Assembly: GCA_963783375.1 (NCBI GenBank)
Contig: CAWANH010000029.1
Location: forward strand, 1,504,001 to 1,568,000
Reading direction: 5' to 3'
Source of the DNA: Candidatus Eiseniibacteriota bacterium
Lineage (GTDB): Bacteria > Eisenbacteria > RBG-16-71-46 > JABDJR01
DNA length: 64,000 bases
Shown here: one piece after another, positions 17,301 to 44,080 of the stretch
Numbering within the stretch: position 1 is the stretch's first letter
Layout: each line of letters begins with the position of its first letter
Position numbers and translations under genes: made by a program
The notes under the pieces: model-generated
What the model was told of the DNA's origin: nothing
What the model saw: only the letters and a program-made list of their open reading frames with translations
Database searches by the model: none

Positions 17301-17311
17301 AAGGCCCGGTG

Positions 17312-20626: not shown

Positions 20627-20663
20627 ACCGTCAGGACCGAGTAACGGAAAGGAGACCCAACCG

Positions 20664-21500: not shown

Positions 21501-21539
21501 GACGGAGGCCAAACCCCCCGACACTGGGAGGATGCACTC

Positions 21540-24011
21540 ATGCCACCTCACGGCGGACCGCACCACCCGGCCCGTTTCCACCAGTTCATCCTGAAGCTGA
21601 GGGAGCCGGATCCAAGCGGAGGGCAGCTCTCCGCGCAGGACTACGAGATGACTCCGGGAACCTCATCCCGTATCCATCACATCCTCTCCGGAACGCGCTA
21701 TACTCTCGGGAAGAGCTTTCCCAGGTACGGGGATCTCCTCCTGGCCAGGGGATACACGACCGCTCTGACTCCGGCAGGTCCTCCCGCCACTCTGGCCACC
21801 TTCTACCGGCTCTTTCTCGCCCCGACCTCCTCCCAGGACCTGCAGGCCATCCGCACGGCCCTGGAGGGTGTGGATCAGGTGGCTTACGTGATTCCGGCCC
21901 GGCCGTTCGGCCCCCCTCCCTCTCCCCCCCCCAGCTCCGGCGACGATCTGGAGCCTTCCCAGGGCTATCTGGATCCGGCCACCGACGGCGGGATCGATGC
22001 TCGGTCGGCCTGGGAAGTGGTCGGGGGCAAGGGAGCGGGAGTGGCACTGGGCGTGGTGGACGGCGCCTACGATCCCGATCACCGGGACCTTCCGCCTGCG
22101 GAAACGCTCGAGTCCCTCTATGAGGACACCGGTCTCTCGATGGAGCATGGGACCGAGGTGCTGGGCATGCTCTGCGGGAGCCGGGATGGAGTGGGGGTGA
22201 CCGGCATCGCGTACGACATCGGCCATATCTACTTCGCCAACTACGTGGACATCCCTCCCGGTTCGGCTCACTGCTTCGATGCTACCGGAGCCGCCGTTCC
22301 CTGCGCCTTCGAGTCGGCCGTGGGGGACGAGTACGACCGGCTCCTCCGCGAGGCCCGGATCATGACGGCCCTGGACGACCTGGCCTTGAAGCTACGGGAT
22401 TGGCCCGATGGTCCGGTCGTCATGCTCCTCGAAGTCACGGCGTACGAGGATCCCGACTCGTACACGTTGGAACGCCCGGTAGAGTTGAATCCGGACATCC
22501 GGACGTATCTGAGGGCGCTGGCCGAGACGGACGGGATCACCGTGATCGAGCCGGCGGGCAACGACTCGAAGCGCCTCGACGACGTCGACGTGCCGAAGAG
22601 CGACGACGGCTCCTCCGCGAAGCTCTGGGGAGCGGATATGGACGACGCCTCCGACTCCCTCGCCGTCATGGTCGGGGCGGGAAAAGTCCCGCCCGAAGAC
22701 CTTTCCGCGCCTGGGACCTGGAGGACCCACGAGGCCATCACCAGCTACGGGACGCGCGTGAACTGCCAGGGTTGGGGCAACAAGGTGGTGACCGCGAGCA
22801 CCGACCTGACCGGGACCATCATCGACGGCAGCGCCTACACGGACGGCTTCAGCGGCACCTCCTCGGCCAGCGCCATGGTGGCCGGGGTCGCGGTGTGCCT
22901 CCAGGGGGCGCGGCTGGGAGCGGGCATGGATCCGCTCTCCCCGGTCGAGCTGCGTGCCCTGCTCGCCGACCCCGACTACGGGAGCCCCCAGCCGGAACTG
23001 GACGCCAGCTCCTACCCCATCGGCCCCCTACCCGATCTCGGGAAGCTTCTCACCCTGTGCTCCGACATCTTCCTCCGGGATCACGTCGGAGACACCGGGG
23101 AGGAGCCGTCATCGGGAACCGGGGTGTGCTGGAGCCCTGACATCATCCTGCGGACGGTGCGCGAGTTCGATCCGGAGGCGGCGTTCGGCGCCGGGGCCTG
23201 GGAGGACGGGTATCTCTGCCAGGATGCGGCCGCCGGCAGCGACAACTACGTCTACATCCGGCTGAGCAATCGCGGGACCTACCCGGACGACGCCCGGATC
23301 ACCGTGTACTGGGCCGACCCCTCGACGTTCCTCTACCCCGACGACTGGCACGAGATCGGGGTGCTGGAGGCGGAGGCGATTCTCCAGGACGAGCAGCGGG
23401 TCATCCCCGATCCCCTGGTCTGGGAGGCCGGGGATCTACCCGCGGCCGGGCACTACTGCCTGATCGCGCTGGCCGAGACCGATTCGGACAAGGTGGACGT
23501 GGCCGGCGCACTGTCCGCGGGCGAGAAGTTCGTCATGCTCGTCCGGGAGCAGAACAACCTGTGCTTCCGGAACATCAAGGTGGTGGAGGCGGCTCCGGGC
23601 TCCGAAACGTCCTCGGCCACGTTCTTCCTGCGGGGGTTGCCGGGGAGATACTTCCCGGATCCCGACAACCGCCACCGCCTGGTGATCCGATCGAGGCTCC
23701 CCCGGGGCGCCGTCGTCCACGTGGACCACACGAGGCTCGAAGTCCTTGGACCCCACCTCGCGGCGGACGGCATCGGAGCACCGCCCCAGCGCGGGGACCG
23801 GCCCCGTGAGCCCCTGATGCTGCAGGGCCTCCTCCCCCACCTCATCGATGGGATCGTTCTCGAGCCGGACCAGAAGGTCCCGGTCACCGTGCGCGTGGCC
23901 CTCCCCCCCCGGACCCCACCCGGACGTTACCTTGTGGCCGCCGAGCAGTACTGGCGGGGGAAGCTCCTGGGCCGGGTGAATTTCGAGGTTCGCGTCCGCC
24001 CGACGGCGTGA
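21540..24011 (+). CDS. S8 (subtilisin-like) serine peptidase with C-terminal beta-sandwich domains
   Basis: Triad motifs GVVDG, HGTEVLG and GFSGTSSA; oxyanion motif PAGN; C-terminal SPDI...NYVYIRLSNRG domain. No evident signal peptide. Confidence 0.85.
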   Translation: MPPHGGPHHPARFHQFILKLREPDPSGGQLSAQDYEMTPGTSSRIHHILSGTRYTLGKSFPRYGDLLLARGYTTALTPAGPPATLATFYRLFLAPTSSQDLQAIRTALEGVDQVAYVIPARPFGPPPSPPPSSGDDLEPSQGYLDPATDGGIDARSAWEVVGGKGAGVALGVVDGAYDPDHRDLPPAETLESLYEDTGLSMEHGTEVLGMLCGSRDGVGVTGIAYDIGHIYFANYVDIPPGSAHCFDATGAAVPCAFESAVGDEYDRLLREARIMTALDDLALKLRDWPDGPVVMLLEVTAYEDPDSYTLERPVELNPDIRTYLRALAETDGITVIEPAGNDSKRLDDVDVPKSDDGSSAKLWGADMDDASDSLAVMVGAGKVPPEDLSAPGTWRTHEAITSYGTRVNCQGWGNKVVTASTDLTGTIIDGSAYTDGFSGTSSASAMVAGVAVCLQGARLGAGMDPLSPVELRALLADPDYGSPQPELDASSYPIGPLPDLGKLLTLCSDIFLRDHVGDTGEEPSSGTGVCWSPDIILRTVREFDPEAAFGAGAWEDGYLCQDAAAGSDNYVYIRLSNRGTYPDDARITVYWADPSTFLYPDDWHEIGVLEAEAILQDEQRVIPDPLVWEAGDLPAAGHYCLIALAETDSDKVDVAGALSAGEKFVMLVREQNNLCFRNIKVVEAAPGSETSSATFFLRGLPGRYFPDPDNRHRLVIRSRLPRGAVVHVDHTRLEVLGPHLAADGIGAPPQRGDRPREPLMLQGLLPHLIDGIVLEPDQKVPVTVRVALPPRTPPGRYLVAAEQYWRGKLLGRVNFEVRVRPTA

Positions 24012-24098: not shown

Positions 24099-25514
24099 AT
24101 GCTGACCACGATCCTCTGGGTCATCCTCGGCCTCTACGGCCTCGTCATGTTCCTGGTGTCCCCCACCGCGCGCCGGTTCGGGGAGTTCTATGCCGGACGC
24201 CGGGCCGACGACCGCGAGGTCGGCCAGGGGCTCCTGATCGGTTCGGTGGTGATCTCCTGGATCTTCGCCAAGTCCATCACCAACGCGGCCAACCTGGGCC
24301 GGGAGTTCGGCCTGGTGGGGGCGGTGGCTTACGCGGGGTGGTATCTCTCCATCCCGGTGGCCGGGTTCGTGATCTACCGGATCCGAAAGCGCACGCGGGT
24401 GGGGAGCCTCACCGAGTTCCTCACCGCCAAGTACGGCCGCGCCGCCGCGGCGGCGTTCATGCTGGTGGTGATGATCCGGCTGGTGAACGAGGTCTGGTCC
24501 AACACCGCGGTGGTGGGGACGTACTTCGGGCCCGCCGGCACCCTCCCCTACTTCGCCGCCGCCATGGCCTTCGCGCTCCTCACCCTGGCCTACACCCTGC
24601 GGGGCGGGCTCCGAAGCTCCATCCTCACCGACGGCATCCAGTTCGTCCTGGGGCTGGCCCTTCTCGCCGCCGTCCTGGCCTGGGTGGTCCCGGCAGACGG
24701 ACCGCGCCGCCTGGTCCACTCCGGCACCTGGACCCTGGCCGGGGGCGTGGACCTCCTCCTGGTGGCGCTCCTGCAGTCGTTCAGCTACCCCTTCCACGAT
24801 CCGGTGCTCACCGATCGCGCCTTCATCACCGACGCCCGCCGGATGCTCAAGGGCTACCTCTGGTCCGGGGTCATTGCCGCCGCCTTCATCGCGCTCTTCG
24901 GCCTGGTGGGGGTGCACGCCCGAAACGCGGGGCTCGACCCCGGCCAGGACACCCCGTTCCGGGTGGCCCGTTCCTTCGGGCTGGTCGCGCTGGTGGTGAC
25001 CACGGTGCTGATGATGGCCTCCGCCGGCTCCACCCTCGACTCCACCCTGAGCTCCTTCAGCAAGGCGGTGGTGCTGGACCTGGGCGGCGGGCGTGAATCC
25101 GGCCGCACCGCCGGCCTCAGCGACGGCTTCAGCCGGCTCCTGGCCCGCGCGAACAGCATCCGGGTGGGCCGCTGGATGATGGTGCTGGCGGTGGCCATCG
25201 GATCGGTACCCCTGTTCACCGGGGCGGCCATCCTCAAGGCGACCACGGTCAGCGGCACCATGGTGCTCGGCCTCGCGCCCGCGTTTCTCCTGTTCGACTG
25301 GCCGAGGCCCCGCGCCGCCGCCTTCCACCTCGCCCTCTGGCCCGGCATCCTCCTCGGCGTGCTCTACGCCGCGGGGCGCGTGCCGTCGGCGTGGGCCCTG
25401 GGGAACGGACCCAACGCCGCGCTCCTGGGGGTGAACGTGTACGGGACGCTGATCGTGTTCGGCGGCTTCCTGATCGGGGCGGTCCTGGATTCGACCGTCC
25501 GCCGGATCCGCTGA
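24099..25514 (+). CDS. Sodium:solute symporter family transporter
   Basis: About 13 TM segments; YTLRGGLRSSILTDGIQ and SAGSTLDS motifs. Confidence 0.85.
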   Translation: MLTTILWVILGLYGLVMFLVSPTARRFGEFYAGRRADDREVGQGLLIGSVVISWIFAKSITNAANLGREFGLVGAVAYAGWYLSIPVAGFVIYRIRKRTRVGSLTEFLTAKYGRAAAAAFMLVVMIRLVNEVWSNTAVVGTYFGPAGTLPYFAAAMAFALLTLAYTLRGGLRSSILTDGIQFVLGLALLAAVLAWVVPADGPRRLVHSGTWTLAGGVDLLLVALLQSFSYPFHDPVLTDRAFITDARRMLKGYLWSGVIAAAFIALFGLVGVHARNAGLDPGQDTPFRVARSFGLVALVVTTVLMMASAGSTLDSTLSSFSKAVVLDLGGGRESGRTAGLSDGFSRLLARANSIRVGRWMMVLAVAIGSVPLFTGAAILKATTVSGTMVLGLAPAFLLFDWPRPRAAAFHLALWPGILLGVLYAAGRVPSAWALGNGPNAALLGVNVYGTLIVFGGFLIGAVLDSTVRRIR

Positions 25515-25703
25515 GACACGCGCTTCCCGCCCCGAACCGGTCCCCGGAGGTTTACGCCTTCACACCCCCCCGCCCGCCGGGTAGAGTTCTCGCGCCCGAC
25601 CGGCCGCGCCGGCCCGGACCCGGCCCGACCGGCCCCCACACGACAGGACGAAAACAGCCCTTTACCCCCCGGACGGCGCCGCCGTCCCCCGGAGGAGACC
25701 GGC

Positions 25704-26246
25704 ATGCGCGACGCGGTAAAGCAACTCTGGCCGGAGCTGGACTGGATCCGGGACGCGGACCTTCGCGAGAAGACCCTGGCCACCTGGGTCCGGGCCTTCG
25801 AGCGAAGCCCCCTGACCCCCGAGGATCTGAAAACGATCCCCTTCACCCTCCTCGTTCCCGACTGCCCGGTGACCTTCATGGAGCACAAGCGGGCGGTGGT
25901 CCACATCTGCCGCCGGTCCGCCGAGGCGATGCGGGAGCACATGGGGGACGCGCTCCCCATCGACATGGACGTGCTGATCGCCGGGGCCATCCTGATCGAC
26001 GTGGGGAAGCTCCTGGAGTACGAGAAGGTGGGCGGGAACGTCCGCCAGAGCGCGCGGGGGAAGGCGCTTCGCCATCCCTTCACCGGGGTGGCGGTGGCCA
26101 TGGAGTGCGGGGTGCCGGATACGGTGTGCCACCTGATCGCCGCCCACTCCGAAGAGGGAAACCTGGTCAAGCGCTCCACCGAGGCGATCATCGTCCACCA
26201 CGCGGACTTCATGAGCTACCTGCCGTTCAAGGCCCTGGCCGGTTGA
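25704..26246 (+). CDS. HD-domain (HDIG-like) protein with HD changed to ID
   Basis: EH...GAILIDVGK...RH...IAAHS...HHAD. GGAGGAG RBS. Confidence 0.75.
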   Translation: MRDAVKQLWPELDWIRDADLREKTLATWVRAFERSPLTPEDLKTIPFTLLVPDCPVTFMEHKRAVVHICRRSAEAMREHMGDALPIDMDVLIAGAILIDVGKLLEYEKVGGNVRQSARGKALRHPFTGVAVAMECGVPDTVCHLIAAHSEEGNLVKRSTEAIIVHHADFMSYLPFKALAG

Positions 26247-26272
26247 GCGGAACGCGGGAAGGAGACTCGAAC

Positions 26273-27664
26273 ATGACCGACGGGCAGAACGGCACGGTGT
26301 CCGCGCGCATGGCGCGATGGGCCGCGGACCTTCGCTACGAACAGCTCTCGAAGGACGCGGTCTACCAGGCCAAACGGTTCCTGCTGGACTCCCTGGGCTG
26401 CGCCCTCGGGGGCTGGTCCCAGCACGATGTCCGGATCGCCATGGAGGTGCTGGAGGAGATCGCGGGGGACGGCCCGGCCACGGTGATCGGGAGCCCCCGG
26501 AAGCTGGACCCGGTCTCGGCTTCCCTGGCCAACGCCCTCATGATCCGGGTCATGGACTACAACGACATCTACTGGAAGCAGGACCCCTCCCACCCCTCGG
26601 ACCTCATCCCCGCCGCCATGGCCTCGGCGGAACGGGCGGGAGGCGACGGGCGGGAGCTGATCGTGGGGACCGTCCTCGGCCATGAATTCGAAATGCGCCT
26701 TTGCGAGGCGGCCATCCCCGGGATCCGGGAGCGGGGCTGGCACCACGCCACCCTCACCGCCTTCGTGTCGCCGATCGTGGCCGGGCGGATGCTCCATCTC
26801 GACGCGGAGCAGATCCAGCACGCGATCGGGATCTCGGCCAGCCGCCACGCCACCCTGGGGGCGGTGACCGCGGGCAAGCTCACCATGATGAAGAACACCG
26901 TGGACCCCATGGCCACCCAGAGCGGGGTCCTGGCCGCGCTCCTGGCCGAAAAGGGCTACACCGGCCCCGAGCACGTGGTGGAGGGGAAGGAAGGGATCGT
27001 TCATTGCCTGGGGCCGGAGTGGAACCTCGGCGTGCTCACCGACGGCCTCGGGGACGCCTGGCGGATCACGAGCTGCGGAATGAAGTTCTTCCCCACCGAG
27101 GCCCTCACCCACGCCCCCATCTCCGCGGTGCTCGACCTGGTCGAGGAGCACGATCTGAAGCCCGACGACGTGGAGACGGTTCAGATCCGCTCCCTGGCCC
27201 GGGCGGCGGACATCCTGGCCGATCCCTCGAAGTACGACCCCAGGTCCAAGGAAACCGCCGACCACTCCCTTCCCTACGTGGTCGCCGCGGCGCTGGTGGA
27301 TCGCCAGGTCACCCCGGCCCAGTTCAAGCCGGAGAAGATCGCCGACCCGGTGATCCGGGCCCAGCTCCCCAAGGTCAAGGTCGTCGCCGACCCGGAGATC
27401 GAGAAGGTGTTCCCCGCGCTCCAGCGGGTGGCGGTGGCCATCCGCACCGTGGACGGGCGCGAGCTCACCCGGGAGCTGGACTACCCCAAGGGGGACCCCA
27501 GAAACCCGCTCACCGACCGGGAGATCGAGGCGAAGTTCGACGCCCTCGCCGCCGGGGTTCTGGACGGGCCGGGGCGGAAGCGGATCAAGGACGCGGTGTG
27601 GAACCTGGAGGAGCACGCATCGGTCACCGAGGTCCTGGCGCTCACCACCCGGCTCTCGGGGTAG
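26273..27664 (+). CDS. prpD: MmgE/PrpD family dehydratase
   Basis: DSLGCA, DYND...SHPSD, RGWHH and ETADHSLPY motifs. ATG 26273 with AAGGAG RBS. Confidence 0.9.
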   Translation: MTDGQNGTVSARMARWAADLRYEQLSKDAVYQAKRFLLDSLGCALGGWSQHDVRIAMEVLEEIAGDGPATVIGSPRKLDPVSASLANALMIRVMDYNDIYWKQDPSHPSDLIPAAMASAERAGGDGRELIVGTVLGHEFEMRLCEAAIPGIRERGWHHATLTAFVSPIVAGRMLHLDAEQIQHAIGISASRHATLGAVTAGKLTMMKNTVDPMATQSGVLAALLAEKGYTGPEHVVEGKEGIVHCLGPEWNLGVLTDGLGDAWRITSCGMKFFPTEALTHAPISAVLDLVEEHDLKPDDVETVQIRSLARAADILADPSKYDPRSKETADHSLPYVVAAALVDRQVTPAQFKPEKIADPVIRAQLPKVKVVADPEIEKVFPALQRVAVAIRTVDGRELTRELDYPKGDPRNPLTDREIEAKFDALAAGVLDGPGRKRIKDAVWNLEEHASVTEVLALTTRLSG

Positions 27665-27715
27665 GGCCGGAGGCCGCTCCCAAAGCCGCTCTTCCGGGCC
27701 GCCCCGGATGGACGC

Positions 27716-28594
27716 TCAGCCGCCGGCCGGGTCCAGGAAGTCGGCCACGCGCGTCAGGAACTCGCGCACCTCGGAGGGGTCGGCCAGGGCGTAGCGGGCG
27801 ATGGTCTTCCGGCCGCCCGGGGCCACCACGATCCCGATCCCGATGGAACGGATCTCGCGGAACGCGTCCTCATCGGTGAGGTCGTCCCCGAGATAGATCG
27901 GAACGACGTCCTCGTGGTCCAGGCCCAGCTCGCGAAGAATCCAGAGCACCGCGGCGCCCTTGTCCCAGGCCGCGGCCGGCCGGAGCTCCAGAACCTTCTT
28001 GCCGGCGGTCCGGACCAGCGTCGGCTCGCTTTCCGCCACGCGATCCACCGTGCGCTCCAGCTCGCCCACCGAGGCCTCGCCCTCGACCTCGCGAAAGTGC
28101 ACCGCCGCCGCGAACCGCTTCCGTTCGAGCCTCGCCCCCGCGATCCCCTCCACCGCGGTCCGAAGGACGTGCTCCGCCCGGTCGAGCGCGGGGAGGGCGG
28201 CCGTTCCCGCCTCGTGCTGGTGGCGAGCGCCGTCCGGGGCCATAATGTCGAACCCGTGGCTCCCGGCGTAGGTGATGCCTTCGAGGTCCACGTGCCGTCG
28301 CACGTCGGCCAGGTCGCGGCCGCTCACCACCGCCACCGGGCAGAGTCCGGCCAGCCGCCGGACCGCGTCCCGGGCTTCGGGGGCCAGGTTCGCGGCGTCG
28401 GGATCGTTCACGATGGGGGTCAGGGTGCCGTCGTAGTCCAGAAACACCGCGGGACGGCATCCCGCGAGCCGGCCCGCCCACTCCGGTTGCCGCTCCAGCG
28501 CCGAGGGCAGGCGTTCCCCGGACTCCGCCGCCGGCCCGCCCGGAGCGGGGGGACGTTCCTCTCCGGCCGGTTTGGGTCCCCGTTCACCGCTCAC
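27716..28594 (-). CDS. otsB: Trehalose-6-phosphate phosphatase
   Basis: FLDYDGTLTPI, VVSGR, AGSHG, ELRP...WDKG and YLGDDLTDEDAF. Confidence 0.93.
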   Translation of the reverse strand: MSGERGPKPAGEERPPAPGGPAAESGERLPSALERQPEWAGRLAGCRPAVFLDYDGTLTPIVNDPDAANLAPEARDAVRRLAGLCPVAVVSGRDLADVRRHVDLEGITYAGSHGFDIMAPDGARHQHEAGTAALPALDRAEHVLRTAVEGIAGARLERKRFAAAVHFREVEGEASVGELERTVDRVAESEPTLVRTAGKKVLELRPAAAWDKGAAVLWILRELGLDHEDVVPIYLGDDLTDEDAFREIRSIGIGIVVAPGGRKTIARYALADPSEVREFLTRVADFLDPAGG

Positions 28595-28712
28595 GTGGTC
28601 CGCTCCTTCCTCCCGGGAAATCCGATCCCGGCTTCCATCCTCCCAGGTTTTCCGGCCGCGTTCCAGACGCGACGACGGTAGAGCCGCCGAATGCCGGACG
28701 GCCCATCACCGG

Positions 28713-28827
28713 TTAACATACTCGAATTAAGCATGTTAGGCGGTCCGAAGCCCTCTCCGCCCCGGCCCGCTCCTCCCTACGCCGCCCCCGCGGCACCCTG
28801 GGAGAACCCCCGCCGAGGGCCTATAAT
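28713..28827 (+). promoter_or_regulatory. Candidate operator or IHF-like palindrome and -10 box in the otsB/aconitase divergent region
   Basis: TAACAT-N13-ATGTTA at 28714-28738 and a perfect TATAAT at 28822-28827. Confidence 0.45.
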
Positions 28828-28859
28828 CTCGCCCTGGTTTACGGGATAGGAGGTTCGCC

Positions 28860-30813
28860 GTGGGTCAGACCGTGGTCGAGAAAATCACCGAGCGCCACCT
28901 GGCCGACGGCCCGCCTCCGCGGCCCGTCCGGGCCGGGGATTTCGTCTCCATAAGGCCGCGCCACGTCATGACCCACGACAACAGCTCGGCGGTGATGGCG
29001 AAGTTCAAGGGTCTCGGCATCACGCGCGTCCACGAGCCCCGGCAGATCGTCTTCACGCTGGACCACGACATCCAGAACCGCTCCGAGGCGAACCTCAACA
29101 AGTACCGGGCCATAGAGGCCTTCGCCGGCGAGCACGGGATCGAGTTCCATCCAGCGGGAAGCGGCATCGGCCACCAGATCATGGTGGAGGAGGGCTACGC
29201 GGTTCCGGGGTCGTTCGTGGTGGCCTCGGATTCGCACTCCAACATGTACGGGGGCCTGGGCGCGGTGGGCACTCCGGTGGTGCGTACCGACGCCGCCGCC
29301 ATCTGGGCCACCGGCGTCTTCTGGTGGCAGGTCCCCCCCACCGTGCAGGTGGTGCTGAGCGGCGCCCTCCGACCCGGGGTGACCGGGAAGGACGTGATCG
29401 TGGCGCTGTGCGGGCTCTACAACCGGGGCGAGGTGCTGAACGCGGCGGTGGAGTTCACCGGCCCCGGGACGGCCTCGCTCTCCATGGACGCCCGCCTCAC
29501 CATCTCCAACATGACCACCGAGTGGGGGGCCCTGGTGGGCTGGTTCCCGGTGGACGAGCGGACCGTCTCCTATATGAAATCGGTTTTCAACCGGTCGGCG
29601 GAGAAAGGCATCCAGCGGTTCGGGGAAGACGACCTCCGTGCCTGGGCGGAGGCGCCCCCCGCGCCGGACCCCGACGCTTCCTACGCCGGGCGCATCCGCC
29701 TGGACCTCTCCAAGCTCACCCCCCACGTCTCCGGCCCCGACTCCGTCCAGGTCATGACCTCGCTGGCGGAGATGGCGGGCCGGAAGGTGGCGATCGACAA
29801 GGCGTACCTCGTCTCCTGCGTGAACTCCCGGCTCGAGGACCTCGAGGCCGCGGCGAAGGTCCTGGACGGCAAGCGCGTGGCCGAGGGGGTCGAGTTCTAC
29901 GTGGCCGCGGCGAGCAAGCGGGTGCAGGAGGAGGCGGAGCGGCGCGGGGTGTGGAAGACGATCGTGGACGCGGGAGCCCGGCCGCTCCCTCCGGGGTGCG
30001 GGCCGTGCATCGGGCTCGGGGTGGGGCTCCTCACCCCCGGCGAGGTGGGGATCTCCGCCACCAACCGGAACTTCAAGGGGCGGATGGGATCGCGCGAGGC
30101 GCAGTGCTACCTGGCCAGCCCCGAGGTGGTGGCCGCCTCCGCGGTGGCCGGGATGCATCACCGGCCCCGGCGACTGGGCCGATCTCGCCCCGGAGCGGAG
30201 CTTCGAACCCCTGGAGCCCGCGGCGGAGAGCGCCCCGGAGACGGTGGACATCCTCGAAGGATTTCCCGAGCGGGTCACCGGGCGGCTGATCTTCCTCCCC
30301 CAGGACAACCTCAACACCGACGGCATCTACGGGAAGGACTACACCTACCGCGAGGACATGACCCGCGAGGACATGGCCCGGGTGGTGATGGAGAACTACG
30401 ATCCGGTTTTCGCGGCCAGGGTGAACGCCGGCGACATCGTGGTGGGCGGGTTCAACTTCGGCACCGGCTCCAGCCGCGAGCAGGCGGTGACCGCGCTCCA
30501 GGCCAAGGGGATTCCCCTGGTGGTGGCGGCGAGCTTCTCCCAGACCTACCTCCGGAACGCCTTCAACAACGGGTTCATCTGCGTGGAGTCTCCCAAGCTG
30601 GTCGAGCGGCTCCGGAGCGACCTCGCCGAGGCCTCGGAGGCCGGACAGAAGACCGTCGTGCCGGGCGGGGGGGTGGAGGTGGACTTCACCACCGGGACCA
30701 TCCGGTGGCGGGGAGGCGCCTACCGGTTCCCGCCCTTGAGCCGGGTGCCCCAGGAACTGGTGACCGCGGGAGGGGTGGAGAACCTGGTGCGACGCCAGGC
30801 CGCCGCCCCCTGA
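28860..30813 (+). CDS. lysF: Homoaconitase-type aconitase-family hydratase, fused large and small subunits (1-nt frameshift at ~30152)
   Basis: MTHDNS, DHD, GIGHQ, DSHSN and Fe-S cysteines SCVN / CGPCIG. Removing one G at gccgggatgc joins the frame to NLNTDGI...NFGTGSSREQA. Confidence 0.8.
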
Positions 30814-30925
30814 CCGCCCCGGTCGTCCGGGCGCGTGCGGACGCACGGCCCCATGAGTTTTCGAGCCTTGGAACGAACATCGAGCGGCCGCGGCCGGCTC
30901 GACAACCTGGAAGGAGCAACACACG

Positions 30926-32113
30926 ATGGCGCGCTTCACGGTGGTGGCGATGCCGGGGGACGGAATCGGCAAGACCGTCCTCCCGGAGGCGGTGCGGGTC
31001 CTGGACGCGGTGGGCTTCGACGCGGAGTACGTGCACGGGGACATCGGGTGGGACTTCTGGGTCAACGAGGGGAACGCGCTTCCCGAGCGGACGGTGGAAC
31101 TGTTGGCCGAGCACAAGCTGGGGCTCTTCGGCGCCATCACCTCCAAGCCCAAGGCGGAGGCGGCCCGCGAGCTCAGCCCCGGCCTCCGCGACAAGGGGTT
31201 CAGCTACTTCAGCCCCATCGTGAGCCTCCGCCAGCGGTTCAACCTGGACAAGTGCGTTCGCCCCTGCCGCTCCTTTCCCGGGAATCCCCTGAACTTCATC
31301 CGCCGGACCCGCGACGGCAGGTTCGAGGAGCCCCTGGTGGACGCGGTCATCTTCCGGCAGAACACCGAGGGGATGTACGCGGGGGTGGAGTGGACCGACC
31401 CTCCCCCGCCGGTGCGCGAGGCCCTGGCCACCCACCCCAAGTTCAAGGCCTTCGCCGGGGTTCCCGGGCCGGACCTGGCCGTCTCCACCCGCATCGTCAC
31501 CCGGACCGGCACCACCCGGATCGTCCGCTCCGCGTTCGAGTACGCGAAGAAGCACGGCTACCGATCGGTGACGGTGTGCGAGAAGCCGAACGTGCTCCGG
31601 GAGACGTCGGGCATGTTCGAGGAAGTCGCCAAGGCGGTGCAGAAGGACTTCCCCGAGGTCCAGCTCCGGTCCACCAACATCGACGCCCAGATGATGTGGC
31701 TCACCAAGAACCCCGAGGACTACGGGGTGCTGGTGGCGGAGAACCTCTTCGGGGACATCGCCTCCGACGCCTTCGCCGGGTTGGTGGGCGGCCTCGGGTT
31801 CGCCTGTTCCGGCAACATCGGGGACGAGGTGGCGGTGTTCGAGCCCACCCACGGGTCCGCCCCCAAGTACCAGGAGCTGGACCCGCCCATCGTGAACCCC
31901 ATCGCCATGATCCTCTCCGCGGCGATGATGCTGGACCACGTGGGCGAGACGGCGGCCGCGGAGCGGGTGCGGAACGCGGTGGCCGCGGTGGTGAAGGAAG
32001 GGAAGGTCCGGACCTACGACATGATGCGGCTTCCCGGCGGGGCCAAGGCGATCGGGATGGGGGCGGCCGCCACCTCCCGGATGACCGATGCGATCGTGGC
32101 CAACCTGAAGTAG
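30926..32113 (+). CDS. Isocitrate/isopropylmalate dehydrogenase family protein (possibly homoisocitrate dehydrogenase)
   Basis: PGDGIG, RQNTEGMY, KPNV, NLFGDIASD and FEPTHGSAP. Confidence 0.9.
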   Translation: MARFTVVAMPGDGIGKTVLPEAVRVLDAVGFDAEYVHGDIGWDFWVNEGNALPERTVELLAEHKLGLFGAITSKPKAEAARELSPGLRDKGFSYFSPIVSLRQRFNLDKCVRPCRSFPGNPLNFIRRTRDGRFEEPLVDAVIFRQNTEGMYAGVEWTDPPPPVREALATHPKFKAFAGVPGPDLAVSTRIVTRTGTTRIVRSAFEYAKKHGYRSVTVCEKPNVLRETSGMFEEVAKAVQKDFPEVQLRSTNIDAQMMWLTKNPEDYGVLVAENLFGDIASDAFAGLVGGLGFACSGNIGDEVAVFEPTHGSAPKYQELDPPIVNPIAMILSAAMMLDHVGETAAAERVRNAVAAVVKEGKVRTYDMMRLPGGAKAIGMGAAATSRMTDAIVANLK

Positions 32114-32236
32114 GCGGAGGCGGCCCGGGCGCGGATGCGCCGGGGTGCGATCGGACCGGGGTCGCGGGACGGCCGGGCGGCGTGGATGCGAGCCGGGGTG
32201 GTCCTGGCGCGGGCCGCGGGACGAAGGAGGACGGAG

Positions 32237-33445
32237 ATGGCGACGGAAACCGGGGGACGCGGGGAAGCGGGCCGGAGGGGCGCCGACGTTCGCTCCGACC
32301 TTTTCGCGGCGGTGGAGCCTCGAAAGGGCGGCGGCATCGACCTGGACCTCCGCTCCAAGGTGGAGCTCTATTACGGCGAAGCCACCCGGGATCTGGTGCT
32401 CGCCACCCTGAAGGAACTCGGCGTGGCCAACGCCCGGGTGGAGATCGAGGATCAGGGCGCCCTCCCCTTCGCGATCATGGCCCGGGTGGAGGCGGCGGCC
32501 AAGCGGGCCGGCCTCGGAGGGACGCACAAGGCGCGCCCGGAGCGGCAGGGCGCTCCGGTGGTGGCGATGCGTGACCGGCTCCGCCGCTCCCGCCTCTACC
32601 TTCCCGGCTCCGAACCCAAGTACTTCGTCAGCGCCGGGCTCCACCGTCCCGATGCGGTGATCCTCGACCTGGAGGACTCGGTCCACCCCGACGAGAAGGA
32701 CGCCGCCCGGATCCTGGTGCGAAATGCCCTTCGGGCGGTGGACTTCGGCGGGTGCGAGCGGATGGTGCGCATCAACCAGCTCCCCCTGGGGCTCAAGGAC
32801 CTGGAGGAGATCGTCCCCGAAACCCCCGACCTGATCCTGATCCCCAAGGTGGAGACCGCCGACCAGGTCCGCGAGGCGGACGAGAAGATCCGGGGCATCC
32901 TCGAGCACGGCGGCCAGGCGCATTCGATCTGGCTCATGCCGATCCTGGAATCGGCGCTGGGGGTGGAGAACGGGTTCGCCATCGCCGGCGCGTCGCCGCG
33001 GATCGTGGCCATGACGGTGGGACTCGAGGATCTGACCGCGGACCTGGGGGTGGTGAAAACCCCCGAGGGCGCCGAGACCCTCTACGCCCGGAGCCGGCTG
33101 GTGAACCTGGCCAGGGCGGCGCGGGTCCAGGCCATCGACTCGGTCTACGGCGACGTGGAAGATCTGGAGGGGCTCCTGGCCTACGGCCGGCGCTCGCGGG
33201 CCATGGGGTTCGAGGGGATGGGGTGCGTCCACCCGAGGCAGATCGAGGTGGTGCACGAGGCCTTCGCCCCCTCCGCGGCGGAGATCGAACGGGCGGTGCG
33301 GATCGTGGCCGCCTTCGACGAGGCCTCCGCCCGGGGGCTCGGGGTGGTGAGCCTGGGCTCCAAGATGATCGACCCGCCGGTGGTGAGCCGGGCGCAGAAG
33401 CTCGTGAAGCAGGCGCGGGACATGGGGCTCCTGCCGAAGGACTAG
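32237..33445 (+). CDS. citE: Citrate lyase acyl-carrier (CitD-like) and beta subunit (CitE) fusion
   Basis: N-terminal ~90 aa CitD-like (VRSD...SKV..YG...D.GAL...ARV.AA). CitE motifs RRSRLYLPG, LDLEDSV, VRIN, IPKVE and HPRQI. Confidence 0.85.
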   Translation: MATETGGRGEAGRRGADVRSDLFAAVEPRKGGGIDLDLRSKVELYYGEATRDLVLATLKELGVANARVEIEDQGALPFAIMARVEAAAKRAGLGGTHKARPERQGAPVVAMRDRLRRSRLYLPGSEPKYFVSAGLHRPDAVILDLEDSVHPDEKDAARILVRNALRAVDFGGCERMVRINQLPLGLKDLEEIVPETPDLILIPKVETADQVREADEKIRGILEHGGQAHSIWLMPILESALGVENGFAIAGASPRIVAMTVGLEDLTADLGVVKTPEGAETLYARSRLVNLARAARVQAIDSVYGDVEDLEGLLAYGRRSRAMGFEGMGCVHPRQIEVVHEAFAPSAAEIERAVRIVAAFDEASARGLGVVSLGSKMIDPPVVSRAQKLVKQARDMGLLPKD

Positions 33446-33563
33446 CGGGGGCCCGGACGCCTCGACCGGGCAGGGCACGGTTTCCACCCGGGGAACCGCG
33501 TGGTCACGGCGCCGTACGATTTGACCGGGCGGGGGCGCGGCTCCCGCTCAAGGAGTAGCCGAC

Positions 33564-35114
33564 GTGGATCTGGTGAAGAACGACGCGGGGCGGACGGTCC
33601 CCACCGAGGTGAACGGAAAGCCGCAGACCCCCTACCGGGGGGTGAACGCCCACCGGCCGGAGGGCGCGAAGCACGGCCCCCCCATCCGCTCCGCCGCGGA
33701 CTACCCGGCGAGCGGGAGCAAGCTGGCGCCGGACCTCGAAACCGCATTGAAGGAGTGCGGCCTCCGGGATGGAATGACGATCTCCAACCACCATCATCTT
33801 CGTAACGGAGACCGGGTGGCCCTGGCCGCCCTCCAGGCCGCGGGACGGCTGGGGGCGAAGGACCTGATGTGGTTCCCCAGCGCGTCCTTCCCCTGCCAAT
33901 CCCCGGTGGTGGACCTGATGGAATCGGGGGTGGTGCACCACATCGAGGGGAGCATGAACGGCCCCCTGGGCGAGTACTGCTCCCGGGGGAAGATGCGCGG
34001 GATGGGGGTGCTCCGCTCCCACGGCGGACGGTGGCAGGCGATCCAGGACGGCGAGGTCGGGATCGACATCGCGGTCATCGCCGCCCCCACCGCCGACGCC
34101 TTCGGAAACGCCGACGGCTCCCACGGACCCTCGGCCTGCGGGTCCCTGGGCTTCGCCCTCGCCGACTCCCTCTACGCCGACAAGGTCATCGTGGTGACCG
34201 ACAACCTGGTGGACTTCCCCTGCATCCCCTGGCAGATCCAGGGGAACAACGTGGACTACGTGGTGAAGGTGGACTCCATCGGCGATCCGGCCCAGATCGT
34301 CTCCGGCACCACCCAGATCACCAAGAGCCCGGACCGGCTCCTGATCGCCCGGAACATCGCGAGGTTCCTGGCCGCGGCGGGGATCATGAAGGACGGGTTC
34401 TCCTTCCAGGCCGGGGCGGGGGGGATCGCGCTGGCCTTCGTCGCCTATCTCCGCGACATGATGCGCGCGGCCGGGGTCCGCGCGCGCTTCATCCGGGGCG
34501 GCTCCACCCGGGTGCTGGTGGAGATGCTCCAGGAGGGGCTCACCGACTACATCCTCGACGGCCAGACCTTCGATCTCGACGCGGTGCGTTCCATCGGAAG
34601 CGATCCCCGCCACGTGGCCACCTCCCCCTTCACATCCTACAACTTCCACGGGAAGGGCAACTTCGCCTCGATGGTCGACGCGGTGGTGCTGGGGGCCACC
34701 GAGGTGGACGTGAACTTCAACGCCAACGTGAACACCCACTCCGACGGCCTGCTGCTGCACGGGATCGGCGGGTGGCAGAACTGCCTGTTCTCGGGCTGCA
34801 CGATCCTCGCCGTCCCCGCCTTCCGGGACCGCATCCCGGTGATCGTCGACCGGGTGACCACCCTGACCGGCCCCGGCGAGCTCATCGACGTGGTGGCCAC
34901 CGAGCGGGGCATCGCCATCAACCCGCGCCGGAAGGATCTCCTGGACGCGGTGCGCGGGTCGGACCTCCCCCTCCGCCCCATCGAGGAGCTCCAGCGCGAG
35001 GTGGAGGGGATCTGCGGCGGGAAACCCGCGTTCCCGAAGCTGGGCGACGAGCCGGTGGCGGTGATCAAGTGGGTGGATGGGACGGTGATCGACTCGGTGT
35101 GGAAGGTGGTGTAG
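33564..35114 (+). CDS. citF: Citrate lyase alpha subunit (CoA-transferase)
   Basis: GLRDGMTISNHHHLRNGD, RSHGGR, CGSLG, FSFQAGAGG and LGATEVD. Confidence 0.92.
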   Translation: MDLVKNDAGRTVPTEVNGKPQTPYRGVNAHRPEGAKHGPPIRSAADYPASGSKLAPDLETALKECGLRDGMTISNHHHLRNGDRVALAALQAAGRLGAKDLMWFPSASFPCQSPVVDLMESGVVHHIEGSMNGPLGEYCSRGKMRGMGVLRSHGGRWQAIQDGEVGIDIAVIAAPTADAFGNADGSHGPSACGSLGFALADSLYADKVIVVTDNLVDFPCIPWQIQGNNVDYVVKVDSIGDPAQIVSGTTQITKSPDRLLIARNIARFLAAAGIMKDGFSFQAGAGGIALAFVAYLRDMMRAAGVRARFIRGGSTRVLVEMLQEGLTDYILDGQTFDLDAVRSIGSDPRHVATSPFTSYNFHGKGNFASMVDAVVLGATEVDVNFNANVNTHSDGLLLHGIGGWQNCLFSGCTILAVPAFRDRIPVIVDRVTTLTGPGELIDVVATERGIAINPRRKDLLDAVRGSDLPLRPIEELQREVEGICGGKPAFPKLGDEPVAVIKWVDGTVIDSVWKVV

Positions 35115-35144: not shown

Positions 35145-36071
35145 TCACGGTCGAACCCGCTCCACCCCGATCACGTTCGGGACCGGCCACGCGACGTGGT
35201 TGTCTTCGTTCTCGTTGAAGCCGGTCTCGTAGCTCCCCACGTACTCCTCCTCCACGTCGCCGGCGTGGACGTAGAGCTGGGCTTCCGGCCCTCCCTCCAC
35301 GTACATCGCCCGCGTGAGCCCGAGCGGGAGAGCCATGAGCCCGTCGATGAGATCGTGGACCGGGTACGGGGAACGCACGTGGATGAGGAGCACGCGCCCG
35401 GTGGAATCCTGGCCCACGCAGGCGGTGCTCCAGCGTCGATCCTGGCGGGACCAGGCGTTTCCGCCCCGGCAGGTGACCATGCGGATGTCCTGGATGAACG
35501 TGCCGTAGAGATCCCGCCAGTCCGCGTAGTCCTCGCACTGGAGATCGAGGAGCTTCACCGGCGGCACGTCCCGGAGACCCGAAGGATCGAACGCCAGCAC
35601 GGCGTTGTCGTCGCTCAAGGCGCCGTTGTTGACGTACTCCCCCGTCCGCATGTGGGCCACGCTGGTGCGCCCGTCCCCCTGGAACATGCTGGCGTTGATC
35701 GCCGCCGCCAGCCCGTACTCACTGCACCAATCCCGGGCGGTGTGGGCGCTGCCGTCGCCGAGATTCCCCGCGCACAGGAGTCTCAGGTGCCACAGCTTCG
35801 GGTCGATCCGGAGGACGCGTAGCCGGGAGTCGCCGACGTCGGAGGTCTCCGGCAAATCGAACTCCCCCAGTTCCAGCCCCGGCTCCAGCGTCCGCCACCC
35901 CGAGGTCTCGGCGGGCGGTGCGGGAGCCGCGACCGGGGCGGGCGCTTCCACGGTGGGCGCTCGGGCAGCAGCCTGGTGGGCGGAAGCCGGACCCGGACCC
36001 ACCAAGAGGACGGACATCACCGGAATCGAGAGCAACGACACTGGCTTCACGACGTACCTCCCGGATTGCAT
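35145..36071 (-). CDS. Phosphodiester glycosidase (NAGPA-like) family exported protein
   Basis: AAINAS, AMYVEGG and PVPNVIG motifs, with an N-terminal signal-like segment. Start codon uncertain. Confidence 0.7.
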   Translation of the reverse strand: MQSGRYVVKPVSLLSIPVMSVLLVGPGPASAHQAAARAPTVEAPAPVAAPAPPAETSGWRTLEPGLELGEFDLPETSDVGDSRLRVLRIDPKLWHLRLLCAGNLGDGSAHTARDWCSEYGLAAAINASMFQGDGRTSVAHMRTGEYVNNGALSDDNAVLAFDPSGLRDVPPVKLLDLQCEDYADWRDLYGTFIQDIRMVTCRGGNAWSRQDRRWSTACVGQDSTGRVLLIHVRSPYPVHDLIDGLMALPLGLTRAMYVEGGPEAQLYVHAGDVEEEYVGSYETGFNENEDNHVAWPVPNVIGVERVRP

Positions 36072-36333
36072 CTACGGAAACCCGGCTCCCGGTTCAACCG
36101 AACCCGTGCGCCGGTATCTCGACATATGGTGGCCATCATAGCGCCGGATCGGCAAATGGCGACGTTCACCCGCTGACCGAAGAATCCCCGAATTCGCTTC
36201 GGAGAGGCGCGTCACCCCCCCCCCCGGCGGCGCGCCCCGGCTGTCCAGGGGACCCGGTCTATGGATATGATCCCCGTGGCCGGCCGACCGGAGAACCGCG
36301 CCGTACCGCCGGGGCGGGAGGAAAGGAATCACC

Positions 36334-36771
36334 ATGCACCGAGAACGTGTTCAGACCGGCGCTCCCTGGGAGAGCCGGGTCGGCTATTGCCGGGCGATCC
36401 GCGCCGGAGAAGCGATCTACGTCTCCGGCACCGCGCCGGTGGACCCCGGGGGCGGAGTCCACGCACCCGGGGACGGGTACGCCCAGGCCCGGCGCTGCCT
36501 GGAGATCATCGAGCAGGCGCTCGCCGGTCTTGGGGCCGGTCCCGCCGACGTGGTCCGCACCCGGATGTTCACCACCGACATCGCGCGGTGGGAAGAGTAC
36601 GGCCGGGCTCATGCCGAGGCGTTCGGCGATCATCCCCCCGCCACCTCGATGGTGGAGGTGCGGGCGCTCATCCATCCCGACATGCTGATCGAGATCGAGG
36701 CGGATGCCGTCCGCGGCAATGCGGACTCCGTCCGCGGCAATGCGGACTCCGTCCGCGGCAATTCCGATTGA
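36334..36771 (+). CDS. RidA (YjgF/YER057c/UK114) family protein
   Basis: GYCRAIR, VSGT, DVVRTR, PATSMVEV and LIEIEA. Confidence 0.9.
   Translation: MHRERVQTGAPWESRVGYCRAIRAGEAIYVSGTAPVDPGGGVHAPGDGYAQARRCLEIIEQALAGLGAGPADVVRTRMFTTDIARWEEYGRAHAEAFGDHPPATSMVEVRALIHPDMLIEIEADAVRGNADSVRGNADSVRGNSD
36700..36762 (+). repeat. 21-bp tandem repeat, three copies, in the RidA 3' end
   Basis: GCGGATGCCGTCCGCGGCAAT followed by two copies of GCGGACTCCGTCCGCGGCAAT, encoding AD(A/S)VRGN three times. Confidence 0.9.
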
Positions 36772-36784
36772 GGAGGAAACCATC

Positions 36785-37306
36785 ATGGCCGAGTTCGCAT
36801 CGCTCCTGGAAGAAACGCTCGAGGCCTGGCGGGACGTACGCGAAGGACTGATCGAGGAGGTGGAGAACATTCCCGCCCAGAAGTTCGACTTCCGGCCCGC
36901 CGAGGGGGTGCGAAGCGTGAAGGAACTGGTCCAGCACATCCTGGAGGTGGCGATGATGATGACCGGGGAGCTCTCGCGCCCCGACACCAACCTCCGTCGC
37001 GCTCCCTTCCCGAAGCTCGTCCGGACCTACGCCCGGCCGGCCTACGACGCCCAGACCAAGCGCCAGCTCGTCTCGCTCCTCAAGCACCAGATGAAGGACG
37101 CGGAAAAGCAGTTCCGGGCGGCGGGCGAGCTCTCGCTGCTCCAGTTCCTCACCCGCTTCGACGGCCGGAAGGGCACCAAGATGGCCTGGCTCCAGCACGG
37201 GATCGCCCAGGAGATGTACCACCGCGGGCAGATCACCCTCTACGCGCGGCTCCTGGGACTCACCCCGGCCCTGACCAGGCACATCCAGGGCTCCGCCGGC
37301 TCGTAG
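36785..37306 (+). CDS. DinB family protein
   Basis: FRP....RSV.ELVQHI and HGIAQEMYHRGQ. GAGGAGG RBS. Confidence 0.85.
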   Translation: MAEFASLLEETLEAWRDVREGLIEEVENIPAQKFDFRPAEGVRSVKELVQHILEVAMMMTGELSRPDTNLRRAPFPKLVRTYARPAYDAQTKRQLVSLLKHQMKDAEKQFRAAGELSLLQFLTRFDGRKGTKMAWLQHGIAQEMYHRGQITLYARLLGLTPALTRHIQGSAGS

Positions 37307-37316
37307 GCGACGCCGG

Positions 37317-38042
37317 CTACTGGTTCCCGAGGAGCCCGCCCAATAGTCCGCTTCCCCGTCCGCCCCCCGACGAGTTGTTCCGGGGAAGCCGGGGGATGAG
37401 CCAGTTCAGGAAGGATTGGGTGCTCCGGGTCTGGAGATAGAGCGTGCCGCTCCCCCGGAACTCGCACACCAGTCCCTCCCCGGAGAGGATCGTTGACTTC
37501 CAGCCGCCCACCCGCTTCACGTTGAAGTCGAGGCCACCGGTGAAGCCCACCACGTGTCCGGTGTCCACCACGTAGGGGGTACCGGAGAGCTGGACCATGT
37601 GGATGGCCCCGTAGCTGGAGAAGATCACCGGGCCGCTCCCGGTGGCCTTGAGAAGGAACAGCCCCTCGCTTCCGAAGAACGTCTTGGCCCCGCCCCAGCT
37701 CGCGTCCACGTTGATCTGCGGCGGCGCGGCCAGGTACGAGCCGGACTGGAGGAAGAACGGCTCCCCGGCCAGTTCCAGGGTCGAGATGTCCCCGGGAAGG
37801 GCCGGGGCGAGGCTGATCTCCCCCGGCCCCCCGCGGGAGACGAAGGTGTTGAAGAACAGCGACTCCCCTCCAAGCACCGTCCGCTTGAGCGCCCCCATGA
37901 TCCCGCCCTTCATCCCGGTCTGGATCTCCAGGTTCGCCGACATGCTCACCATCGCACCCCCTTCGGCCTGGACCGCTTCTTCGGGGTCGAGAGAGACCAG
38001 GGCCAGGGAGTAGGACGGCTGGTAGCGGATGTCGATCTTCAT
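37317..38042 (-). CDS. TIGR00266 / AIM24 family protein
   Basis: AEGGAMVSMS, GGESLFFN, GEGLF-like, YGAIH and VDTGHVV. Confidence 0.88.
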   Translation of the reverse strand: MKIDIRYQPSYSLALVSLDPEEAVQAEGGAMVSMSANLEIQTGMKGGIMGALKRTVLGGESLFFNTFVSRGGPGEISLAPALPGDISTLELAGEPFFLQSGSYLAAPPQINVDASWGGAKTFFGSEGLFLLKATGSGPVIFSSYGAIHMVQLSGTPYVVDTGHVVGFTGGLDFNVKRVGGWKSTILSGEGLVCEFRGSGTLYLQTRSTQSFLNWLIPRLPRNNSSGGGRGSGLLGGLLGNQ

Positions 38043-41591: not shown

Positions 41592-41804
41592 GGCATTCCC
41601 TCTCTGTCCGGACTTCTGGGGATTGAGTGAGAGTGAGAGGACTGCGGGGAAGACAGGGTAACCCCGGGGCCGGCCCCAGACAAGGGGCGGATGCGCCGCG
41701 CCGGCCGGCAGGAAACATCTCGGGAGCGCGGCGCTCCGGGCTCCCGGCGGACCGCAGAAGCCCCCGGGCCCGGGCCGGTACGGCCCGAGCCCGAGAATGT
41801 TCCT

Positions 41805-41859
41805 TTCCGATCGGATCGATCGGAAATCCCCGGCCCGGACCCTCGCGGATCCGGGCCGG
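41805..41859 (-). terminator. Paired inverted repeats downstream of the M16 operon (possible terminator)
   Basis: CCGGCCCGGA/TCCGGGCCGG at 41830-41859 and TTCCGATC/GATCGGAA at 41805-41825. Confidence 0.4.
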
Positions 41860-41882
41860 ACCCGATTGCTTCCGGGACCGCG

Positions 41883-44030: not shown

Positions 44031-44080
44031 GCTCGGAACCTCCGCGAAACGGAAAACGCCGTATCGGTCGTGGGTGCGGC

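Follow-up and report, generated by a model that had tools for sequence, protein, structure and literature searches.

A widespread gene cluster with citrate-lyase-like, PrpD-like, homoaconitase and dehydrogenase genes: a candidate route from 2-oxoadipate to 2-oxoglutarate

A cluster of six core genes in the genome of a Candidatus Eiseniibacteriota bacterium (GenBank assembly GCA_963783375.1, here G000) may well turn 2-oxoadipate and CO2 into 2-oxoglutarate and acetate, with (S)-homocitrate as a predicted intermediate and the upper half of the alpha-aminoadipate pathway running in reverse. The genes lie in the window analysed here, a stretch of 64,000 nucleotides (contig CAWANH010000029.1, positions 1,504,001 to 1,568,000). 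They encode an HD-fold protein, a PrpD-like enzyme, a homoaconitase of the fungal Lys4 type, a beta-decarboxylating dehydrogenase, a CitD-CitE fusion and a CitF-type CoA-transferase. The arrangement is real and widespread, mostly in uncultured bacteria, and it joins known enzyme families in an undescribed way; no description of the combined module or route was found in the open-access literature, supplements aside; PMC7511310 and PMC3534657 added nothing decisive. Judged from the sequences, the substrates are probably at the level of homocitrate, and the larger part of that confidence goes to the reductive direction, in which the substrate would be carboxylated and cleaved. The 2-oxoadipate likely comes from lysine. 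An earlier note on this DNA had proposed a synthase-free chain between acetyl plus a 2-oxoacid and a longer 2-oxoacid plus CO2, and this chain is supported by co-conservation of the genes and by substrate motifs at the homocitrate/2-oxoadipate level. The note had offered both directions without choosing; the evidence here tilts towards carboxylation and cleavage.

In the proposed route, lysine 6-transaminase and piperideine-6-carboxylate dehydrogenase (Pcd), both encoded elsewhere in G000, would convert lysine to 2-oxoadipate together with a transaminase. The dehydrogenase would join 2-oxoadipate and CO2 to homoisocitrate at the expense of NADPH, and the Lys4-type enzyme would convert homoisocitrate to cis-homoaconitate. 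The PrpD-like enzyme would hydrate cis-homoaconitate on the face that aconitases leave unused, giving (S)-homocitrate. CitF would move CoA from acetyl-CoA onto (S)-homocitrate with release of acetate, and CitE would split (S)-homocitryl-CoA into acetyl-CoA and 2-oxoglutarate.

Results

Synteny was assessed in 80 homoaconitase loci, the best 80 of at least 598 related stretches, from a search covering 5 of the 64 parts of the genome collection. Co-location was counted within 8 kb, and many loci end at contig edges. Within this distance the dehydrogenase gene was found in 49 loci, the HD gene in 47, the PrpD-like gene in 37, CitD-CitE in 21 and CitF in 20, and the core genes co-occur in several gene orders. 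Module-bearing phyla include Acidobacteriota, Gemmatimonadota, Ignavibacteriota, Marinimicrobia, Planctomycetota and Verrucomicrobiota. The genes lie together far more often than chance would allow, and the cluster is real. A second survey took 150 genomes sampled evenly from the host phylum, among which kin are not independent and the unpublished genome G065 is counted among the homoaconitase-negative and dehydrogenase-negative genomes. A Lys4-type homoaconitase was present in 19 of the 150; of these, 17 had the dehydrogenase, 15 a CitF match and 16 the PrpD-like gene, which occurred in 1 of the 131 homoaconitase-negative genomes. The dehydrogenase is spread more widely (55 of 150 genomes). 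The genes are co-conserved in the 80 loci, there in shuffled order, and in the phylum sample, which upholds the earlier note's view of them as a unit.

By its motifs, the dehydrogenase is of the homoisocitrate type in its substrate site and of the NADP type in its coenzyme site. Its best solved relatives in the PDB are homoisocitrate dehydrogenases (HICDH). A Y-x-S-P-I-V motif is common to the family (relative L053 as query) and Schizosaccharomyces pombe HICDH (3ty3), and it is invariant in 48 of 49 aligned rows, the remaining row being truncated. At the position of Ser113-Leu-Asn115 in Escherichia coli isocitrate dehydrogenase (IDH) the protein has Ser-Pro-Ile, identical to S. pombe HICDH; the Ser113 equivalent is kept and the Asn115 position is Ile in all aligned rows. 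The equivalents of Lys344, Tyr345, Tyr391 and Arg395, the NADP determinants of E. coli IDH, are also kept. NADP use is determined by Lys344 and Tyr345 (PMC5397045, PMC5054688), and the coenzyme motif is Lys-Tyr in 49 of 49 rows, as against the NAD-type Asp-Ile of the Thermus enzyme (3asj/1x0l). The best score against a curated HICDH model was 266 for a cut-off of 540, and no fungal HICDH model was among the matches. A family-specific insertion sits before the substrate helix. In a tree of 34 rows, a chosen subset, the lyase types described below were mixed across one compact family; a long-branch outgroup stood in the basal fork, so that the tree does not show monophyly. A LeuB-like dehydrogenase of G000 (L093:5067-6125, contig C28) with an NADP-type Lys-Tyr motif forms a long branch in the tree; its gene adjoins thiolase and 3-hydroxybutyryl-CoA dehydrogenase genes. 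A further argument, from Val at the position of Arg85 of the Thermus enzyme, on which no paper was found, does not hold, as E. coli IDH likewise carries Val at this position.

The N-terminal part of the homoaconitase alone scores 589.9 bits against the TIGR00139 cut-off of 529.9, and the homoaconitases of four relatives score 735-866. The cluster-binding cysteine motifs, the Asp-His dyad and the SSREQA motif are kept. The PrpD-like protein belongs to the MmgE/PrpD superfamily, with both Pfam domains and the conserved His/Lys motifs. Its identity to E. coli PrpD is 25%, with the D-x-N-D...HPSD, K..FP.E and DH motifs kept, and it falls far below the PrpD equivalog cut-offs (score/cut-off 95/950, 81/575 and 57/458).

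We infer that the PrpD-like enzyme interconverts (S)-homocitrate and cis-homoaconitate. Fungal homoaconitases interconvert homoaconitate and homoisocitrate only, and the dehydration of homocitrate is the job of ordinary aconitases (PMC3556520). The aconitase of the host could therefore handle citrate or (R)-homocitrate. According to the same source, (2S,3S)-methylcitrate requires a syn-eliminating dehydratase, hence methylcitrate dehydratase. A dedicated PrpD-like enzyme would make sense if the acetyl arm of the substrate is (3S): (3S)-specific lyases and PrpD would act on the same arm, and for a C7 substrate they would meet at (S)-homocitrate. By this reasoning, PrpD should be dispensable where the lyase of a module is (R)-specific.

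At the lyase end, the CitE part is 37% identical to E. coli CitE, and CitF is 39% identical to its E. coli counterpart (TIGR01584, 474 bits against a cut-off of 501). Ser14 of E. coli CitD is the serine to which the prosthetic group is attached. In 20 of 20 aligned rows this residue is replaced, by Arg in 18 and Lys in 2, and a Ser stands one residue beyond it in 19 of the 20. CitG was not found in any of 30 hosts, and G000, which is 97% complete, had none of CitC, CitG and CitX. With Arg or Lys at this position and no CitG in the 30 hosts, the lyase should use free CoA thioesters; the CitD domain is likely structural, with free CoA replacing the carrier arm. Searches of PDB sequences gave nothing useful for this domain. 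Citrate CoA-transferase (EC 2.8.3.10) accepts acetyl-CoA, giving (3S)-citryl-CoA (PMC8085960).

Clustering of the remaining open reading frames of the 80 loci revealed a second lyase set, which resembles ATP-citrate lyase. It consists of succinyl-CoA-synthetase-like beta and alpha subunits and a citryl-CoA-lyase domain over its cut-off, fused or separate. CitE or CitF was present in 22 of the 80 loci and the second set in 14, and no locus had both. Around dehydrogenase matches in the phylum sample 20 further loci were fetched, and 5 of them carry a third module of an HMG-CoA-lyase family protein, a family III CoA-transferase and a two-subunit HacAB (Table 1). Another 2 have the dehydrogenase and the HD protein beside two aconitase-family enzymes, one of which lacks the catalytic His; this Asp-Cys protein may replace the PrpD-like enzyme. 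The S-P-I-V and K-Y/H motifs of the dehydrogenase are kept in both further arrangements. Three different activate-then-cleave modules thus accompany one dehydrogenase family, and a thioester-hydrolysing synthase was seen in the loci of none of the three. The HMG-CoA-lyase family of the third module is presumably (R)-specific for citramalyl-CoA, a stereochemistry on which no paper was found. This arrangement occurs in families with 0 of 60 and 0 of 32 PrpD matches, and the absence of PrpD fits a split between (S)- and (R)-homocitrate.

The HD protein accompanies both lyase types of the 80 loci, and its presence is as regular as that of the dehydrogenase. It has the fold of HD-domain phosphohydrolases without their His-Asp dyad: the His is replaced (Ile98-Asp99) and is found in 1 of 48 aligned rows, and other His, Asp and Glu residues are invariant. 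The predicted model (pLDDT 93.6) has the YhaM HD domain as its nearest solved fold (Z 16.1, rmsd 3.5, 163 aligned residues). Searches of PDB sequences gave nothing useful, and homologue and atlas searches returned only generic HD names. A repair function, for example the opening of homocitrate lactone, would be a guess.

G000 (4.73 Mb) has no paralogue of the cluster enzymes by tblastn other than for aconitase and the dehydrogenase. Its other genes include those for a citrate (Si)-synthase, which lies on a different contig, a mitochondrial-type aconitase that passes its cut-off, an NADP-IDH that falls just short of its own, and NAD-IDH-like and LeuB-like enzymes. Because citrate synthase, aconitase and IDH are encoded separately, the cluster is not the housekeeping set of the tricarboxylic acid (TCA) cycle. 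At least two aconitase-family matches were present in 41 of 43 hosts. G000 also has an aconitase-family gene in which the small subunit precedes the large one in a fusion (L089:5076-7160) and a divergent aconitase large subunit between aldehyde dehydrogenase and pyruvate phosphate dikinase genes (L090:5734-7071). No PrpB over cut-off was found in G000. The earlier note had found no citrate, methylcitrate or homocitrate synthase and no prpB in the window. The window indeed lacks citrate synthase, HMGL-family synthase and PrpB genes: genome-wide searches placed these elsewhere or did not find them.

Lysine synthesis in G000 looks to be of the diaminopimelate type, with DapF over cut-off and a fusion of aspartate kinase with the decarboxylase LysA. 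LysW and LysX, which the earlier note had named as genes to look for in the host, were not found in G000. Its lysine 6-transaminase is over cut-off and a Pcd gene is present. In 2 of the 80 loci (L023 and L026) both genes, each over cut-off, are located within the cluster or next to it. Among 51 hosts (51 of the 58 genomes first listed), 45 had a lysine 6-transaminase and/or Pcd match, and in controls 0 and 1 of 14 were over cut-off. In the phylum sample Pcd was found in 15 of 19 homoaconitase-positive genomes against 31 of 131 negative ones. Lysine 6-transaminase was over cut-off in 5 of 5 third-module hosts tested, a count with no phylum background for comparison. LysA was over cut-off in 33 of the 51 hosts, and 38, G000 included, had no LysX match. 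With matches in 94 of 151 genomes, the saccharopine-dehydrogenase family did not discriminate. Operons of the lysW-lysX type (L097:4392-10554, L098-L106 and L109) contain in several cases a conserved gene of 211 amino acids with no Pfam match, and in G011 such an operon lies about 2 kb from Pcd.

All seven genes listed in the earlier note, the six core genes and a symporter, were found on the plus strand by the open reading frame list, the sequence and family scans (Table 1). That list stands in its positions and families, but the reading frame of the homoaconitase is broken in the assembly. Each core gene is preceded by a purine-rich stretch before its start codon. A minus-strand trehalose-phosphatase gene splits the cluster between the PrpD-like and homoaconitase genes, which are adjacent in most relatives. 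The symporter, which the earlier note had counted with the cluster, was rejected as a core gene: it occurred in 0 of the 80 distant loci and in 2 of 17 loci within the phylum (L131 and L133), both of the host's genus. Genes for a TPR-CHAT protein, a subtilase, a tricorn-like S41 protease and an M16 peptidase flank the cluster (17267-24011 and 38271-44084), fitting a peptide-degrading host. Downstream (35145-38042) are phosphodiester glycosidase (NAGPA), RidA-family, DinB-family and AIM24 genes, which are not conserved with the cluster. Rfam had no match within the window, and there is therefore no lysine riboswitch in it. Scans for promoters and terminators did no better than chance.

Table 1. 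Genes of the cluster and its surroundings in the window, and loci with other arrangements around the same dehydrogenase. Positions refer to the window unless a locus (L) is given.
Feature	Position	Strand or host	Family match or context
Sodium:solute symporter (SSF)	24099-25514	+	PF00474, weak
HD-fold protein (core)	25704-26246	+	PF01966
MmgE/PrpD-superfamily enzyme (core)	26273-27664	+	PF03972 and PF19305
Trehalose-phosphatase (not part of the module)	27716-28594	-	PF02358
Fungal Lys4-type homoaconitase, frameshifted near 30150 (core)	28860-30813	+	TIGR00139
Beta-decarboxylating dehydrogenase (core)	30926-32113	+	Iso_dh family; best PDB matches are homoisocitrate dehydrogenases
CitD-CitE fusion (core)	32237-33445	+	PF06857 and PF03328
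CitF-type CoA-transferase (core)	33564-35114	+	PF04223
Third-module loci	L157, L158, L161, L163, L169	dehydrogenase loci of G082, G170, G084, G055, G051	no PrpD or HD gene nearby
Second aconitase-family protein, Asp-Cys instead of catalytic Asp-His	L159:5407-7407, L170:5820-7835		beside normal HacAB, HD and dehydrogenase

Discussion

Carboxylation followed by cleavage is favoured because three activate-then-cleave modules occur with no synthase in the loci, because the coenzyme motif of the dehydrogenase is of the NADP type, and because lysine 6-transaminase and Pcd are linked to the module and co-occur with it in hosts of which many have LysA. Several observations weigh against this reading. 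By free energies the overall reaction is near equilibrium, and the genes therefore cannot fix its direction; NADP enzymes, E. coli IDH for one, work in the oxidative direction. The nearest solved relative of the PrpD-like protein is IDS epimerase, not PrpD. G000 has two LeuA/LysS-superfamily synthases, under all model cut-offs (a third HMGL-like match is at L002), so that it may have a homocitrate synthase. It also has the E1 component of 2-oxoglutarate dehydrogenase and a gene tentatively labelled glutaryl-CoA-dehydrogenase-like (58% to the query), and the glutaryl-CoA route is a known alternative fate of 2-oxoadipate. Both loci in which lysine genes adjoin the cluster come from Chthoniobacterales and are not independent. 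Pcd was found in only 24 of the 55 dehydrogenase-positive genomes, and four homoaconitase-positive genomes had no match. LysX was over cut-off in 13 of the 51 hosts, and the 13 LysX loci fetched include lysW-lysX operons without aconitase or dehydrogenase genes, several of them with a homocitrate-synthase-like gene; in these hosts the homoaconitase and dehydrogenase may serve biosynthesis. A catabolic lysine gene was, however, also matched in 11 of these 13 hosts. Finally, the homoaconitase and Pcd genes of G000 are both frameshifted as assembled.

Some of these points bear on the same chain in the opposite direction, which is unlikely but the most credible of the alternatives. Acetate or acetyl-CoA and 2-oxoglutarate would be condensed with the thioester kept, and the product oxidised to 2-oxoadipate and NADPH, feeding aminoadipate and lysine synthesis or glutaryl-CoA oxidation. 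All steps are reversible, the lysW-lysX operons without their own aconitase and dehydrogenase could have a use for such a supply, and in 4 of the 80 loci the cluster has as a neighbour a putative glutaryl-CoA-dehydrogenase-like gene, for which every model stays under its cut-off. ATP-citrate lyase is reported to work in the direction of synthesis in Desulfobacter postgatei, according to the title of a reference in PMC8085960. However, most of the 51 hosts, G000 among them, lack a LysX match and many have LysA, a synthase-like gene is already part of several LysX operons, the lysine genes adjacent to the cluster are catabolic, and all three swapped modules are of lyase types.

A chain acting on another 2-oxoacid or tricarboxylate, such as longer homologues, a branched analogue or 2-methylcitrate, is improbable. 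The dehydrogenase insertion before the substrate helix, the PrpD-like and HD proteins without an assigned role and the 31 of 55 dehydrogenase-positive genomes with no Pcd match would be consistent with it. On the other hand, 2-methylisocitrate is a tertiary alcohol and by established chemistry is not oxidisable by this dehydrogenase family, and lysine 6-transaminase is over cut-off in every third-module host tested. The methylcitrate cycle itself was rejected; G000 has no PrpB over cut-off and the PrpD-like protein is far below the PrpD cut-offs.

It is improbable, too, that the cluster is a second branch at the level of citrate and isocitrate, either for citrate fermentation or as a reductive TCA segment in which 2-oxoglutarate and CO2 would give citrate and then oxaloacetate and acetate. 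The CitF and the CitE-CitD fusion of Ignavibacterium album were read in this way in a study that saw in them either citrate fermentation or a reverse TCA cycle of an unconventional kind, and that judged the organism unable to make lysine (PMC3362086). The identity of CitE and CitF to the E. coli enzymes and the retention of Ser113 and the NADP residues of IDH in the dehydrogenase agree with such a role. Against it are the change of Asn115 to Ile in all aligned rows and an aconitase that scores as a homoaconitase; the hosts also have ordinary aconitase and IDH, and a second dehydratase is needless for citrate. Classical citrate fermentation through citrate lyase was rejected on the Arg or Lys at the carrier serine and the missing CitG, and CitC and CitX are lacking as well.

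An extension of the preferred reading, in which the module is an arm of a reductive citric-acid-type route one carbon longer, is highly speculative. Glutaryl-CoA would be carboxylated by a ferredoxin oxidoreductase to 2-oxoadipate and this converted by a second carboxylation to homoisocitrate, and the products would be 2-oxoglutarate and an acetyl unit recyclable via crotonyl-CoA. The glutaryl-CoA-dehydrogenase-like genes beside 4 loci and a thiolase beside several are hints of this. In 1 of the 20 further loci a gene resembling the beta subunit of 2-oxoacid:ferredoxin oxidoreductase (L170:9496-10821) lies directly upstream of the dehydrogenase. An ADP-forming acyl-CoA ligase gene is found near it.

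Decay of the module in G000 is very improbable, although a one-base insertion near 30150 breaks the homoaconitase frame, the span being a multiple of three plus one, and a minus-strand gene lies inside the cluster. A contig of sequencing run X1, which may be the source sample, has one other difference over 190 bases and lacks the extra base; three relatives align with a one-base gap there, the gene of a same-genus relative, 96% identical, has no frame break, and both halves lie in a single open reading frame in 78 of the 80 related loci. The frameshift is thus probably an assembly error. Pcd (G000:C29:1369721-1371263) and HMG-CoA lyase (G000:C1:127369-128499) are likewise split by frameshifts, suggesting indel errors across the assembly.

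The module shares parts with several known systems. With the upper alpha-aminoadipate pathway of fungi (homocitrate synthase, aconitase and Lys4, Lys12) and Thermus it has in common the Lys4-type homoaconitase, the HICDH substrate motif and the use of two isomerisation enzymes (PMC3556520). It differs in having no synthase, a PrpD-family enzyme in the place of aconitase, a dehydrogenase of the NADP rather than NAD type and a CoA-transferase/lyase end, in the lack of LysX in most hosts, and in its proposed reverse direction and predicted (S)-homocitrate. Citrate lyase (CitDEF, EC 4.1.3.6) provides homologues of CitD, CitE and CitF, but here the carrier serine is Arg or Lys, CitD is fused to CitE, CitC, CitG and CitX are missing, and the genes are linked to homoaconitase and dehydrogenase instead of citrate transport. 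The reductive TCA segment (IDH, aconitase and ATP-citrate lyase, or citryl-CoA synthetase and lyase) likewise carboxylates, isomerises, activates and cleaves, and its ligase and citryl-CoA-lyase-like genes have their like in the second lyase set; the signatures of the module point to substrates one carbon longer, however, and there are separate host TCA enzymes and an extra dehydratase. The methylcitrate cycle (PrpC, PrpD, AcnB/AcnD, PrpB) also pairs a PrpD-family dehydratase with an aconitase-family hydratase on an asymmetric citrate analogue, but the module has a dehydrogenase and a CoA-dependent lyase instead of PrpC and PrpB. Lysine breakdown through 2-aminoadipate, 2-oxoadipate and glutaryl-CoA would share the presumed entry enzymes (lysine 6-transaminase and Pcd) and 2-oxoadipate as an intermediate. 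There, two decarboxylations lead to two acetyl-CoA, whereas the module would add CO2 to 2-oxoadipate and lead to its cleavage into C5 and C2 units.

In annotation, these loci can pass for carriers of reductive TCA markers through their citrate-lyase-like and ATP-citrate-lyase-like genes, as for I. album (PMC3362086). The longer reductive route, if true, would mean that widespread bacteria of sediment and soil have an anaplerotic, CO2-assimilating cycle that has gone unrecognised. If the conversion of 2-oxoadipate to 2-oxoglutarate is correct, a homocitrate enantiomer and an NADP-type homoisocitrate dehydrogenase would be in use, for neither of which a report was found. It would be an undescribed degradation of an amino acid in many phyla, fixing one CO2 per lysine and yielding 2-oxoglutarate, so that a ketogenic amino acid would give a C5 intermediate of the TCA cycle while consuming reducing equivalents.

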